Below are positions 3,885-44,149 of a stretch of 64,000 nucleotides of DNA, one piece after another (position 1 is the first letter of the stretch; each line of letters opens with the position of its first letter). Below the pieces are notes generated by a model, which searched no databases, was not told the DNA's origin, and was given only the letters and a program-made list of their open reading frames with translations. Location of the stretch: the IMG/VR virus record IMGVR_UViG_3300044826_000112. One strand, 5' to 3'. This DNA is from a virus. The position numbers were made by a program, and so were the translations under genes.

Positions 3885-3942
3885 TCCACCCTGGGAGGCC
3901 TAAGGGCCTCCCTCTCTAATATCGTAAAACTGAGGAATCGAT

Positions 3943-10674: not shown

Positions 10675-11052
10675 ATGAGCGTCTTTGAATACCTGCAGAA
10701 ATACTATGAGTACCGCTGGAGCTCTCCCGAGTTCAAGTATGAAATCACTTTGATCCTGGGGTTGGTCTTCTTGAATAGTGCTATCTTGGCATTGATCATG
10801 AAGGTCAGACGGAATCTATCTGACGCCCCTATAGTCTTCGTTCCTATCATGCTGATCTTCATCTTCCTGTCTATGCCTATGGGCTTCGATATGTTCGTCG
10901 GCGTGCTGGCTATCTGTGCATCGTTCGTCTCGATCACCGTATATGAGGCTCAGATGGCGGCAATTAGACGTATCGAAGAGGAGATGTTTATCCATGATCT
11001 AAAGGAAATCAGCTTAATGATGTGGAAAAAGCCTCTCTGGAGGTGTGATTAA
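10675..11052 (+). CDS. membrane protein (about 3 TM segments)
   Basis: Hydrophobic stretches, GGAGG SD. Confidence 0.7.
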   Translation: MSVFEYLQKYYEYRWSSPEFKYEITLILGLVFLNSAILALIMKVRRNLSDAPIVFVPIMLIFIFLSMPMGFDMFVGVLAICASFVSITVYEAQMAAIRRIEEEMFIHDLKEISLMMWKKPLWRCD

Positions 11053-11064
11053 AGAAAAGGGGTG

Positions 11065-11092
11065 TTGACACCCTTTTTTAGTATGCTATAGT
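11065..11092 (+). promoter_or_regulatory. sigma70-type promoter for tRNA/ncRNA cluster 1, with -35 inside upstream terminator hairpin
   Basis: TTGACA-16-TATAGT with extended -10 TG. Confidence 0.75.
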
Positions 11093-11277
11093 GGCATCCT
11101 AGTTTCTCAAGTGGGTGGGCATATGATCCTCATCATGGATGTACAATACGGTGAAACGAATTGTGCGGCCGGATTACTGCAATAGGGATTGACAACCCTA
11201 CTGAGATTGTGAGAAGCTTGCCTGGTAAACATCGGAAACCCGATTGGGTTGTCGCTGTTGATCAGTTAGCACGAAAC

Positions 11278-11354
11278 GGAGCTGTAGTTTAGATGGTGAA
11301 AATGCCTGCCTGTCACGCAGGAGACCGCGGGTTCGAGCCCCGTCAGTTCCGCCA
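11278..11354 (+). tRNA. tRNA-Asp(GTC)
   Basis: Cloverleaf, loop CTGTCAC, CCA. Confidence 0.95.
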
Positions 11355-11784
11355 AAATCTTAAGATCAGTACCCAATCTCCCGCCAGCTAACGGGAGATT
11401 AGGATGACCGAGAAACCCTTCGTTGCGGGGTAAGGTTTTACAGTGGCACAGCCAAGCCTTCCTGTCTCTAATCCTGAGATGGTAAGAATCCCTGAGGTAG
11501 GGGACTGTAAGATCCTAGGACACTCATCATATTGGATGATACTGAGCACAAACTCGTTGAGGGTATGCAAATTCCCTCTCTGGCCTTCGGGTCAGGTGGC
11601 CGAATAAAAGCCTAGCATGGGCGTTAAGGCAATCTACTGGGGATGACCTCCCCTTGTCAGGCACCGTGAGGTGTGAGATCCGCCAGAGGGAATCTGGAGT
11701 AGAGATACGAGGTAGCAATACATGCACCTAGGTCGTCGGTAGCACAGGAATCCGACTCCTTTGGGTGCTGATCTTAAGGTTTTG
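11353..11784 (+). ncRNA. large structured ncRNA (~430 nt), unknown class
   Basis: 24-bp terminal stem with two G-U pairs, many internal hairpins, between two tRNAs, no + strand ORF. Confidence 0.8.
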
Positions 11785-11794
11785 AAAGTTTCAT

Positions 11795-11871
11795 CTGTCC
11801 GTAGCGCAGTCTGGTAGCGTGCTCGATTTGGATTCGAGGGGTCGAAGGTTCAAATCCTTCCGGGCAGACCA
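11795..11871 (+). tRNA. tRNA-Pro(TGG)
   Basis: Cloverleaf, loop TTTGGAT, CCA. Confidence 0.95.
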
Positions 11872-11878
11872 ATTTAAT

Positions 11879-12070
11879 GTCCCATATGCACGGCTAGTCT
11901 CAAATGCTCTTCCATCCACGTGGGTTGAGTCAGTAATGGTAAAAGGCGAGATAGGCTTGGAGTGCAGGTGAAAGGCAGAAGGGCCTACTAGTAAGCTAGA
12001 CTACGTGGATTAGCTGAAGACAGGAAGATACGTTGAGTAGTCAAAGGTTCGACTCCTAAGTGGGACGCCA
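11879..12070 (+). ncRNA. 192-nt tRNA-like RNA (acceptor stem + T loop + long rod)
   Basis: GTCCCAT/GTGGGAC-G-CCA, AGG-TTCGACT-CCT, nested long helices. Confidence 0.75.
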
Positions 12071-12077
12071 ATTTGAT

Positions 12078-12153
12078 CGATGTGTAGCTTAACAGGTAGA
12101 GCATCTCCTTCATACGGAGCAGGTTGTAGGTTCAAGTCCTACCTCATCGACCA
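12078..12153 (+). tRNA. tRNA-Met or Ile2 (CAT)
   Basis: Cloverleaf, loop TTCATAC, CCA. Confidence 0.85.
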
Positions 12154-12542: not shown

Positions 12543-12959
12543 ATGTGCTATTCCAAAGAACTCATTGAGTACTGGAGTCAACATCTCGAGGCCTACTTCT
12601 TCAACGAAGAGGACTTGGTAGTCTATCAGGTAATCGAAGGGTTGGAGTCAGCCTTCCTATCAGAGGTCACGGTACTCGGCTACTTGTTGCCAAGGTTGAT
12701 GATGTTGAATGCCGACCAGAGCGACTATCAATCCATAGTCGTGGTCACCAGCGTAGCTTCGAGCCTAGCTATGTCGATCTTGATAGGCATGAATCCAGTA
12801 CAAGCACTATCCGATACTCTGACTGGAATGTCTCTGGCTATGCCGAGGGATTACTTAGATCAGGTAGTTGCAGATAACCAAGATATGATCAACCAATTGA
12901 CTCGCCGGTTGATTTCTATCCGTCAAAACAATCCCCTTATTCTTGGAGGTGACCAGTGA
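12543..12959 (+). CDS. hypothetical protein
   Basis: ORF after GGTATAAG, AGGAGG SD. Confidence 0.7.
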   Translation: MCYSKELIEYWSQHLEAYFFNEEDLVVYQVIEGLESAFLSEVTVLGYLLPRLMMLNADQSDYQSIVVVTSVASSLAMSILIGMNPVQALSDTLTGMSLAMPRDYLDQVVADNQDMINQLTRRLISIRQNNPLILGGDQ

Positions 12960-41399: not shown

Positions 41400-42014
41400 A
41401 TGTCTAAAGCACTAGACCCGATTTCTTTAGCTATCGCGAAAGCCTCGTGGTGGCATGGCGAACAGAAACGCAAGTACACCAACGATGACTACATCGTTCA
41501 CCCTATTGAAGTCATGAACTTCCTAGCCTTGTTTACTCAGGACGAGGCAGTCATGGTGGCAGCCATCCTGCACGACGTAGTAGAAGATACCCCCGCCACC
41601 GTTCAGGAAGTCGAAGCTATCTTCGGTGAGGACGTAGCCAAACTGGTATTCGGCATGTCGGAACCTGAAGTACCGGCAGGTACCAACCGCGGGGAGCGGA
41701 AGGAAATCTACCGCCTACATCTGGAGAAGCAATGCTGGCGGACCAAGATGATCAAGTTTGGGGATATCTACTCGAACACCAAAGATATCGCTATGCACGA
41801 TCCTGACTTTGCTGTAGTCTACTTGGCCGAAATCCAGCGTACTATCAACTCGATCGATGATAACCGTATCCCGCTCCTGCTCCGCCAAATGGTCAAAGAG
41901 CAGGTCAAGCTGGCTAAGCTGTACGTTGATCAGTTCCAGGCCAACAAGAAGTTGGTCAAGAAGCTGAGCAATATCAGAACTATTACCGAAACCATCAAAG
42001 GAGAACTGCTATGA
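41400..42014 (+). CDS. RelA/SpoT-type HD hydrolase (small alarmone hydrolase/Mesh1-like)
   Basis: H..Q.RK....YIVHP.EV; AAILHDVVEDT; FG..VA.LV; IK.GD..SN. Confidence 0.88.
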   Translation: MSKALDPISLAIAKASWWHGEQKRKYTNDDYIVHPIEVMNFLALFTQDEAVMVAAILHDVVEDTPATVQEVEAIFGEDVAKLVFGMSEPEVPAGTNRGERKEIYRLHLEKQCWRTKMIKFGDIYSNTKDIAMHDPDFAVVYLAEIQRTINSIDDNRIPLLLRQMVKEQVKLAKLYVDQFQANKKLVKKLSNIRTITETIKGELL

Positions 42015-43600
42015 AGAACTATCTGAACAACGCTCTTGGTCGTGCCCACCTGGCTAACGTAGAAGGCGTGGACGTCAAACTTCCCGGCCAAGTACGTACT
42101 CACGGCGGTGGTTTCGCCTTCGAGATCACTCCTGAAGTGCTGCTCGAACGCTTCCTGATCCTGGGTACCACTACCTCTCAGTACGTCGGTCCAGACAAGC
42201 TGGCAGTAGACGCTCTCGGCCGTCTGATGCCGCACATCGCTCTGAACCCGGTGACCGTGGCTCGTACCGCGGTAGAAGCCGTGGAGCAGAACCGTGTGCT
42301 GTCAAAGGTACCTGCTCTTTTCGTTTACGCTACAGCTCACACTGTGGCCACCTCTGGTGAACACCGTCGTGCCATCGCTCTGATGCTGCCTCGTATCGTC
42401 AACACCTTCTCCGACCTTCAGACCCTACTGGGTTTCGTAGCGAACACTCATAACAAGGGTATCGCTACCAGCTTGGTCAAGGCATGCCGTCGCTACCTGT
42501 ACAACATGCCGATCGACAAGATGATCAACCAGGCTCTGAAGTACCGTAAGCGTGCCGGCTGGGCAGTTCTGGACATGCTGCGTGTCATCCACCCTGTGCC
42601 GAAGGATAACGACCAGAACTTCCTGTACGGTTACATCGTGGAGAACGATGAAGCCCGTGCAGAAGCTTGCCGTCGCTTCCCGATGGTAGCAGCCTTCGAA
42701 GCTGCCAAGGTGCTGGATGATCACAACCTGATCGTCAAGCTGATCAAGGACAACGGTCTGACTTGGGAGCACGTACCTACCGAGCACCTGAACAACAAGT
42801 GGGTTTGGAAGGCTCTGCTGCCCAACCTGCCGATGACCGCTCTGATCCGTAACCTGCCGAAGATCTCTTCTGTAGGTGCGATCGATGACACCTTGTCTCT
42901 GGACATCGTGCTGGACAAGCTGAAGCCGGAGATCGTGGCAAAGGCTAAGGTTCACCCCTTCCGTCTTTACCTGGCATGGTACGGCTATGGCCAAGGCGGC
43001 AACCGCAACATGTCCTGGACTCCTAATCAGCGTATCCTCGCTGCTCTGGAGACCTGCCTGTATGCGGCATTCGCCAACGTAGAGGTGAAGGGTAAGGTGT
43101 GCATCGGCTCTGACATCTCAGGCTCTATGTGGTGGGATGACTCTCGCATCAACCGTACTGGTCCGTATGCAGGCGATGCAGCCGGCATGCTGGCAGCCAC
43201 CTTCAAGGCAGCTAATCCGGAAACTGACGTGTTCTACTTCTCCGGCCAGCTGGTCAAGGCGGCGTTCGACCCGATGTCTTTGAAGTCGGTCAACATCGAC
43301 ATGCACAAGCATCACATGGGTAGCACCAACCCAGGTTTGCTGATCTCCAAGGCCATCAAGGATAAGGTCAGATACGATGCCTTCATCGTCCTGACTGATA
43401 ATGACGTGAACAGTGGTCGTCACTCCCAGCAACTGCTGGAGACCTACCGTGCCACCGTCAATCCGAAGGCCAAGCTGATCGTCGTCGGTATGACTGCGAA
43501 CAACTTCTCCATCTCCAGCCCGGATGACGTCCTGTCTATGGACATCGCCGGTATGGACGCAGGGATCATGACTGCGATCGAGAAGTTCATCGCAATGTAA
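42011..43600 (+). CDS. Ro60/Rsr-like TROVE + vWA domain RNA-binding protein
   Basis: GGFAF....LERFLILG....Y; KYRKR.GW...D.LR..HP; LTWEHVP; LP.TALIRNL; HPF; DISGSM (MIDAS); LTDND. Confidence 0.92.
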   Translation: MKNYLNNALGRAHLANVEGVDVKLPGQVRTHGGGFAFEITPEVLLERFLILGTTTSQYVGPDKLAVDALGRLMPHIALNPVTVARTAVEAVEQNRVLSKVPALFVYATAHTVATSGEHRRAIALMLPRIVNTFSDLQTLLGFVANTHNKGIATSLVKACRRYLYNMPIDKMINQALKYRKRAGWAVLDMLRVIHPVPKDNDQNFLYGYIVENDEARAEACRRFPMVAAFEAAKVLDDHNLIVKLIKDNGLTWEHVPTEHLNNKWVWKALLPNLPMTALIRNLPKISSVGAIDDTLSLDIVLDKLKPEIVAKAKVHPFRLYLAWYGYGQGGNRNMSWTPNQRILAALETCLYAAFANVEVKGKVCIGSDISGSMWWDDSRINRTGPYAGDAAGMLAATFKAANPETDVFYFSGQLVKAAFDPMSLKSVNIDMHKHHMGSTNPGLLISKAIKDKVRYDAFIVLTDNDVNSGRHSQQLLETYRATVNPKAKLIVVGMTANNFSISSPDDVLSMDIAGMDAGIMTAIEKFIAM

Positions 43601-43633: not shown

Positions 43634-44149
43634 ATGTGGTGAGGTATCTTACTCTTAAGTAGAGAGGAGGTAACCTCCTCACTCCGTAGTACCCCTCCGG
43701 GGCGGATCCTGGCGGATCCAACTCGGCGTTATGCTCACCAAGCGACGTACAGTATGTTCGACAAGTGTTGAACTGCAAGAGGTAACCTCTTGACTCGTTC
43801 TTCCAGGCGCCGCTCCGGGCTTCGCCCTACGCTCTGCCTGGAGTATCTATAGATTGGATCTAGCATCCGCGAGTGTACGTTAGTACCAACCACCAGAGGT
43901 AACTTTGGGAATACCAAGCGAGGAGGCTACCTCCTCATTCTGTTAAACCCGCAGTCGGCGTACAGTCCCAATCACTGTACCGCCTTCGCATGCTCTGGTT
44001 GATGCTGTGGCATCACGAGTAGTCTGTAGTATATGGACTTAGTTCCGTGGGGAGGTAACCTCCCTACTCCATTACTTCGCGTATTTGCACAGAAGTGCAA
44101 AGTACGCATGTACAGACCATAACCAAAAGAGAGTCCAACTCTCTTTTTT
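43634..44149 (+). ncRNA. Ro60-adjacent ncRNA array of four homologous structured units
   Basis: Promoter GGTATAAAT at 43622, four units (43637..43740, 43744..43881, 43892..43999, 44022..44117), terminator 44125..44149. Confidence 0.8.

Follow-up and report, generated by a model that had tools for sequence, protein, structure and literature searches.

The tRNA cluster of phage T4 holds two stable RNAs, 'species 1' and 'species 2', which are co-transcribed with the tRNAs and excised by tRNA-processing enzymes. The 16S and 23S rRNAs are flanked by RNase III processing stems in a precursor that also holds tRNAs. GOLLD and ROOL are large, ornate RNAs, often located beside tRNA genes in phages and prophages, and cryo-EM revealed both to be RNA-only homo-oligomers (Kretsch et al. 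2025, PMC12286853). The manA RNA (Rfam RF01745) has been described as a riboswitch candidate and 5' UTR element (Weinberg et al. 2010, PMC2864571), and a 2026 preprint by Ren et al. (bioRxiv 10.64898/2026.07.01.735769) presents it as the first naturally occurring RNA that assembles into an icosahedral cage. In the latter work, manA RNAs were found by cryo-EM to form 8-, 10- and 60-mer (T=1) cages in vitro, with kissing loops and GNRA-receptor contacts between the subunits. Adjacency of manA to tRNA genes is mentioned in neither of these two manA papers.

Here we analyse a structured RNA encoded in a 64,000-nucleotide stretch of viral DNA (IMG/VR record IMGVR_UViG_3300044826_000112), referred to below as the window. 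It derives from a large phage of about 51% G+C with 26 tRNA genes, all on the + strand, and the window also encodes class I and class III ribonucleotide reductases and a Ro60 homologue. The nearest isolated relatives are distant, as a structural protein is 41% identical to that of Salmonella phage Arash and 35% identical to those of Vibrio phages D69, D181 and D148. The Ro60/TROVE homologue carries a vWA domain and lies at 42011-43600; just downstream of it, at 43634-44149, the sequence-only reading had noticed an ORF-free, repeated, RNA-like array.

The RNA occupies a 434-nt ORF-free stretch between the genes for tRNA-Asp and tRNA-Pro and is closed by a helix of 23-24 bp (Table 1). On the + strand the unit runs from a promoter through tRNA-Asp and the structured RNA to five further tRNAs (Pro, Met, Gln, Ala and Leu). 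The promoter overlaps a terminator-like hairpin that follows the upstream gene and is also present in one of the relatives described below (L006). The remaining tRNAs of the array are separated by spacers of a few bases, devoid of comparable stems.

Table 1. Features of the structured RNA and its immediate surroundings, in window coordinates
Feature	Position	Strand	Remarks
Promoter, sigma-70-type (TTGACA, 16 nt, TATAGT, with TG)	11065-11092	+	11/12 consensus matches
tRNA-Asp(GTC)	11278-11354	+	encoded CCA at 11352-11354
P1, 5' strand	11353-11375	+	repeat finder; 23-bp closing helix
P2 hairpin	11376-11399	+	8 bp, 8-nt loop with AGCUA; sits where manA has its P1 hairpin
P3, 5' strand AGGA	11401-11404	+	proposed partner UCCU at 11757-11760; invariant in six variants; suggested by layout
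H2', internal-loop hairpin, first module	11407-11436	+	ACC GAGAA ACCCU ... GGGGU AA GGU; 100% paired, almost invariant
Four-way junction, first module	11439-11509	+	J' (11439-11444 with 11504-11509) plus three hairpins
Linker with three predicted small hairpins	11524-11578	+	11524-11539, 11543-11556 and 11559-11578; thermodynamic prediction
Second, manA-like module	11579-11761	+	Rfam manA match and fold
UUCG hairpin, second module	11579-11596	+	
Internal-loop hairpin GAAUAAAA/GUUAA, second module	11599-11630	+	
Four-way junction, second module	11633-11703	+	middle arm tipped by GNRA loop GUGA
Hairpin, second module	11710-11729	+	
Last hairpin, loop UAGCACAGGAAU	11735-11756	+	followed by UCCU at 11757-11760
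P1, 3' strand	11762-11784	+	repeat finder and six-variant alignment
tRNA-Pro(TGG)	11795-11871	+	starts 10 nt past the closing helix

As manA was first proposed to be a riboswitch candidate of 5' UTRs (PMC2864571), and the present RNA shares a unit with tRNA-Pro, Met, Gln, Ala and Leu, all of which follow it, it might be supposed to act in cis, for example as a riboswitch that controls read-through into these five tRNAs and the genes beyond them. We consider this quite unlikely. A search for a terminator inside the stretch found none, and there is neither a terminator nor a ribosome-binding site for the fold to mask. The nearest plausible downstream gene, a 138-aa ORF starting at 12543, lies about 750 nt away, behind all five tRNAs. 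Because there is a tRNA directly upstream too, the RNA is internal to the precursor, and a 23-bp clamp that joins both ends suits an excised molecule. Furthermore, the manA cages form without a ligand (bioRxiv 10.64898/2026.07.01.735769).

Relatives of the RNA were found through homologues of three neighbouring proteins, which led to the contigs encoding them. In this way we obtained six distinct variants, including the RNA of the window, all from one clade of uncultured phages. The order tRNA-Asp, RNA, tRNA-Pro is kept in all five other variants, one of which (L101) has a different tRNA-Pro allele. In comparison to the window, the RNA is 98.2% identical in the L014 group, 96.8% in L020/L021, 96.5% in L006, 96.1% in L101/L102 and 87.7% in L093. 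Other searches were less productive: blastn of positions 11100-12100 against 50,697 phage records returned only tRNA matches, and a lookup in IMG/VR with the neighbouring proteins gave no relatives. A two-block pattern (ACCGAGAAA, gap, CCGAATAA) retrieved 120 metagenome and 85 viral stretches, none of them related according to nhmmer, which means that the pattern was too loose. The exact 16-mer of the last hairpin occurs twice in viral contigs; we regard both matches as chance, because they lie inside protein-coding genes with no tRNA nearby.

The relatives allow the surroundings of the RNA to be compared. Between the promoter and tRNA-Asp, the variants L006, L014, L020, L093 and L101 have an intact gene for a 159-aa Endonuclease_5 protein. 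The corresponding leader of the window, 11124-11277, is a remnant of this endonuclease V gene: ~55 bases of its beginning and ~100 of its end are left on either side of a ~300-nt deletion, which seems to shift the frame; being a decayed gene, it is thus not another structured RNA. Between tRNA-Pro and tRNA-Met lies a further ORF-free element of 192 nt (11879-12070), tRNA-like according to the sequence-only reading, which is 95-99% conserved in L014, L101, L020 and L006 and is missing in L093, where tRNA-Met follows 7 nt after tRNA-Pro. An extra element of ~135 nt, not present in the window, is found between tRNA-Met and tRNA-Gln in L101 (5323-5461) and, at the corresponding position, in L014 and L020; it terminates in a T-arm-like GGTTCAACTCC followed by GCCA, and ARAGORN makes no tRNA call there.

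The RNA is conserved to the level of the tRNAs while the protein-coding neighbours drift. Between the window and L093, the flanking ORFs are 66-77% identical at the nucleotide level, in comparison to 87.7% for the whole RNA, 92.7% for its 3' module (the second module of Table 1) and 88-100% for the tRNAs. Between the window and L006, some of the flanking ORFs are 69-76% identical (two of them 69-71%), as against 96.5% for the RNA and 100% for the 3' module. Across all relatives the 3' module is 92.7-100% identical.

The repeat finder reported the arms of the closing helix P1 as 11353-11376 and 11761-11784, 24 nt each and 92% complementary. We count 23 pairs, since the 24th competes with the first pair of the hairpin P2. 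Watson-Crick pairing is interrupted at just two positions, 11358/11779 and 11370/11767, both of them U-G on the + strand; on the - strand they would be A-C. The helix covaries: in L093 two A-U pairs have been replaced by C-G, and in L006 one U-G pair has become C-G (the pair 11358/11779 is C-G in one relative). The last two bases of the tRNA-Asp CCA supply one side of the initial two P1 pairs, and all relatives share this arrangement.

The + strand of the whole RNA folds to -172 kcal/mol (z -4.8), with none of 100 shuffles equally stable; the - strand is weaker in this respect (z -3.4). Our model of the fold started from RNAalifold and was then corrected by the substitutions found in L093 and by alignment to manA. 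The register of the hairpin at 11489-11503, shifted by one in the RNAalifold output, was set right in this way from the L093 changes. A long-range helix GAUGACC/GGUCGUC, also from RNAalifold, was rejected, since it clashes with the covarying last hairpin and its pairing is disrupted in L093. In the six-row alignment, L093 was re-gapped by hand only at the P2 hairpin and at one base of P1.

This curated model has 130 pairs, of which 102 are invariant in the six variants, 8 changed on one side and still paired, 15 compensatory and 5 broken in some sequence. The compensatory pairs are found in P1 (2), P2 (7), the junction stem J' (4), hairpin 3c' (1) and the last hairpin (1). If the 3' partners are slid by 1-3 columns, 0-2 compensatory pairs are left and pairing falls to 31-46%, versus 98.6% in the curated register. 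A plain MAFFT alignment gives a similar picture for the 5' module, which is 100% paired and has 5 compensatory pairs, a number matched by 1 of 500 shuffles (0-1 in slid registers). The 3' module is near-invariant in such an alignment, and its single compensatory pair is not significant alone. With so little variation in this region, the evidence for its helices is prediction together with the alignment to manA. The closing helix, the P2 hairpin, the first junction stem and the last hairpin thus keep their pairing via compensatory changes.

In P2, compensatory changes affect two or three pairs in L020, L006 and L101. In L093 (~3903-3929) its stem is wholly rewritten (AGCGAGCAA/UUGUUUGCU), and the loop retains AGCUA. 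This loop contains the self-complementary AGCU (UAGCUA in L093), which could serve as a loop-loop dimer contact or as a tertiary contact. Compensatory changes are not confined to these helices. In the four-way junction of the first module, such changes are seen at four of the six J' pairs as well as at one pair within a hairpin. The linker hairpins show no informative variation, and one of their pairs is broken in L093. Covariation between loops was also sought among the six variants, and nothing convincing was found.

Most of what had been proposed from the letters of this stretch agrees with these results. A large, multi-domain, selected non-coding RNA within a tRNA operon had been claimed, and the fold, the covariation, the conservation and the flanking tRNAs bear this out. 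The repeat finder recovered the proposed 24-bp closing stem, including the limitation of its non-Watson-Crick positions to two G-U pairs, with the count of 23 explained above. The internal stems AATCTCCCG/CGGGAGATT (our P2), TTACAGT/ACTGTAA (J') and GTCGG/CCGAC (H5) are all backed by compensatory changes in the relatives. The UUCG and GUGA tetraloops were both found, and the GCAA tetraloop is present solely in one alternative fold. Finally, the complementarity ATTCCCTCT/AGAGGGAAT was seen by the repeat finder; it is invariant across the variants, and its pairing competes with that of two local hairpins.

The closing helix in itself might be accounted for more simply. A near-perfect 23-bp duplex has sufficient length for RNase III, and this one starts inside the CCA of tRNA-Asp; it is conceivable that it is mainly a processing site that parts tRNA-Asp from the later tRNAs, with a functionless interior. 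This is very unlikely, however, since it is the interior that is most conserved (the 3' module above all), inner helices show compensatory changes, and the other tRNAs of the array manage with gaps of a few bases and no such stems. It is scarcely credible that the stretch is not an RNA gene at all, but a protein-coding remnant, an intron or the scar of a mobile element. Short ORFs of 54-66 aa do exist on both strands, and there is a decayed gene just upstream in the operon, but four single-base indels in L093 disrupt every short ORF of the stretch, the substitutions track base pairing, and no intron or ribozyme family matches.

At the curated thresholds of Rfam, no family other than tRNA was found. 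Upon relaxing the thresholds, a match to manA emerged at 11580-11761, covering model positions 1-192 with 42.3 bits (threshold 55.2) and an E value of 2.8e-9. The same match is seen over the full model length in L006 (41 bits, E 1.2e-8) and in L093 (35 bits, E 1.7e-7). All three scores are below the gathering threshold, and canonical examples of manA reach 168-185 bits. For GOLLD, ROOL, RNase P, introns and Y RNAs there is no Rfam match at E values up to 10 over 11000-12100. The sole match of tmRNA type, to the permuted tmRNA model, has 17 bits and E 0.47 and covers 11327-11510, starting inside tRNA-Asp, and ARAGORN reports no tmRNA. The absence of an RNase P, tmRNA or group I/II intron signature, as claimed in the sequence-only reading, is therefore confirmed in that Rfam to E 10 gives no meaningful match. 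Its suggestion of a related or new large RNA class, made by reference to GOLLD and ROOL, holds as regards the setting beside phage tRNAs and fails as regards membership of those families. A strong match to a known family had been named as the result that would remove novelty; the manA match, being below threshold, reduces the novelty of the RNA and does not remove it.

The resemblance to manA consists of several elements that stand in the canonical order in the 3' module. GAAUAA (11602-11607) and UAAGG (11625-11629) align to the internal-loop hairpin of manA and are invariant in the six variants; a looser copy, GAGAAA ... UAAGG, is present in the 5' module. Prediction and model alignment both give a manA-type four-way junction closed by CUACU/AGUAG, in which the second of three hairpins carries the GNRA loop GUGA. 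The terminal hairpin of manA, GGUA..ACAG.AAUCC, is recognizable in the last hairpin, of which a stem pair changes from C-G to U-A in L093 with the loop kept. The enclosing helix, formed in manA by GGGaG directly behind the first hairpin and CuCCC directly behind the last one, was deleted by the model in the 3' module. If P2 is taken for the first hairpin of manA, then AGGA and UCCU, invariant in all variants, occupy the equivalent places of an enclosing helix.

In its loops, too, the RNA departs from manA. In the manA consensus, GUGGUG is complementary to ACCA and UaCUguA to acAguA; judging from the order of the helices, these two loop pairs are probably the kissing loops named L5-L7' and L8-L9' in the preprint. 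Neither complementarity is kept within the matching 3' module, where the corresponding loops (AUGACCU, GGGAA and AUACA) are not complementary in the canonical pairs. Alternative complementarities exist: GAGGU of the 5' module could pair with ACCUC of the 3' module, and ACAGGAA of the last loop with UUCCUGU, although neither combination covaries among the six variants.

Might the RNA then belong to a new large class unrelated to manA, with motifs alike by convergence or chance and a tRNA setting such as is common to GOLLD and ROOL? On one hand, the manA score is under the gathering threshold, one half of the RNA does not match manA, and the RNA lacks the two loop-loop complementarities as well as the canonical enclosing helix. 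A reciprocal search, in which a model of the 3' module matched 69 of 71 canonical manA loci, is of no help here; we discarded it as circular, because these loci had been fetched by a pattern with the same motifs. On the other hand, E values of 1e-7 to 1e-9 were obtained over the full manA model in three variants, and several independent manA motifs follow each other in the same order. Moreover, the layouts of the ends agree (a hairpin, 1 nt, a purine-rich strand, UG and an internal-loop hairpin at one end, and the last hairpin and directly after it a pyrimidine strand at the other), and this RNA and manA both tend to abut phage tRNA genes. We thus consider an unrelated class unlikely. It seems fairly probable to us that this is a free-standing structured RNA of about 430-440 nt, an enlarged and uncatalogued relative of manA.

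The 5' half of such an enlarged manA relative needs to be considered separately, as alone it has no match to Rfam or manA, and a model of the 5' module searched against canonical manA found none. Its layout is nevertheless a familiar one: the hairpin P2 is followed by 1 nt, AGGA, UG, an internal-loop hairpin and a six-pair junction stem with three hairpins. At the 3' end of the RNA, UCCU comes immediately after the last hairpin, the place of CuCCC in manA. Since the layout is manA-like at both ends, we propose that AGGA and UCCU form an enclosing helix that frames two consecutive modules. The likeness between the two halves is weak: their local alignment gave a score of 36 versus 26 ± 4.8, equalled by 19 of 500 shuffles. 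With the 5'-module model, the 3' module was matched in the expected register at 11.8 bits (E 0.012), a score similar to that of a noise match, and the reverse search, with the 3'-module model on the 5' half, gave 5.6 bits (E 0.06) beside noise matches of similar score. Whether there are two homologous modules of manA type, or a manA with a large unrelated insertion, we regard as an even choice.

If the RNA is a relative of manA, the question arises whether canonical manA is also found beside tRNA genes. A scan of viral contigs (IMG/VR, L022-L092) with a manA-signature pattern gave 71 loci, and in 12 of these a same-strand tRNA gene lies directly before or after manA. Rfam was run on eight of the twelve and identified canonical manA with 168-185 bits, at 0-7 nt from the tRNA. 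A tRNA-Thr is located just upstream in 4 of the 12 loci, and a tRNA-Gly, Asn or Asp just downstream in 8. Over species genomes, a general manA pattern yielded six matches, none of the long form; among them are L311 (Paraglaciecola mesophila, a marine gammaproteobacterium) and L310 (a marine Flavobacteriales MAG). Phages Arash and D69 were scanned with the manA model and the 3'-module model, and nothing was found but one 14-bit match, which was set aside as it sits in a stretch that looks protein-coding.

The likeness to manA thus comprises the ordered signatures of the 3' module, carriage by a phage and direct abutment of a same-strand tRNA, the last shared with 12 of the 71 canonical loci. 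There are differences as well. The RNA has ~430 nt in comparison to ~190 nt, with an extra module of like layout and a 23-bp closing helix; both modules lie within its short enclosing helix, provided that this helix exists, and the canonical loop pairs are not kept. Its host phage is a relative of Arash and the Vibrio phages with 51% G+C, not a marine cyanophage. GOLLD and ROOL resemble it in being large, ornate and frequently adjacent to tRNA genes, but no model match is found to E 10, and the present RNA is smaller than either and has no motif in common with them. Like species 1 and 2 of T4, it is a phage RNA among tRNAs; the T4 RNAs are much smaller and are not known to be related to it in sequence. 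With the rRNA processing stems it shares a long duplex around a structured RNA in a precursor that also holds tRNAs, the enclosed RNA being non-ribosomal in this case.

We propose the following scenario for this enlarged manA relative. The RNA would be co-transcribed with the flanking tRNAs and freed by tRNA processing: an RNase P cut at the 5' end of tRNA-Pro would set its 3' end, while 3' maturation of tRNA-Asp would free the 5' side. As the CCA of tRNA-Asp is partly in P1, this maturation would require the helix to open transiently, unless RNase III cuts it beforehand. P1 may clamp and protect the ends of the released RNA, or it may serve as an RNase III site. Within P1, the hairpin P2 and the short putative helix AGGA/UCCU would frame two consecutive modules, each made of an internal-loop hairpin and then a four-way junction with three hairpins, so that the manA core would be present twice or in an expanded form.

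The RNA keeps the GNRA arm, and in place of the canonical loop pairs it offers new complementary ones. As manA cages assemble via loop-loop contacts, a folded, probably homo-oligomeric particle would be expected during infection, rather than a riboswitch for a neighbouring gene. That the RNA may form an oligomeric particle in vivo is, however, only a tentative proposal, as it is drawn from the analogy to manA. Similarly doubtful is the idea that it might be the protomer of a new RNA-only assembly in infected cells, in which a two-module manA-type core would form a shell or ring whose geometry differs from that of the known manA cages. Here the 23-bp helices could be projecting arms or sites at which the ends are cut or joined, and the particle could hold or sequester something connected with the tRNA operon it stems from, such as tRNAs, host nucleases that target tRNAs, or other host factors.

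Taken as a relative of manA, this RNA extends the family past the marine cyanophages to a clade with 51% G+C near Salmonella and Vibrio phages, and it indicates that a manA-type RNA occurs that is more than twice as large and clamped by a long helix. Direct abutment of tRNA genes, seen for this large form and for a sixth of the sampled canonical manA loci, favours an excised, free RNA over a gene switch. If a host is found, the variant would permit genetic tests of a manA-type RNA, and a two-module protomer would be a ready target for structural work on RNA-only assemblies.
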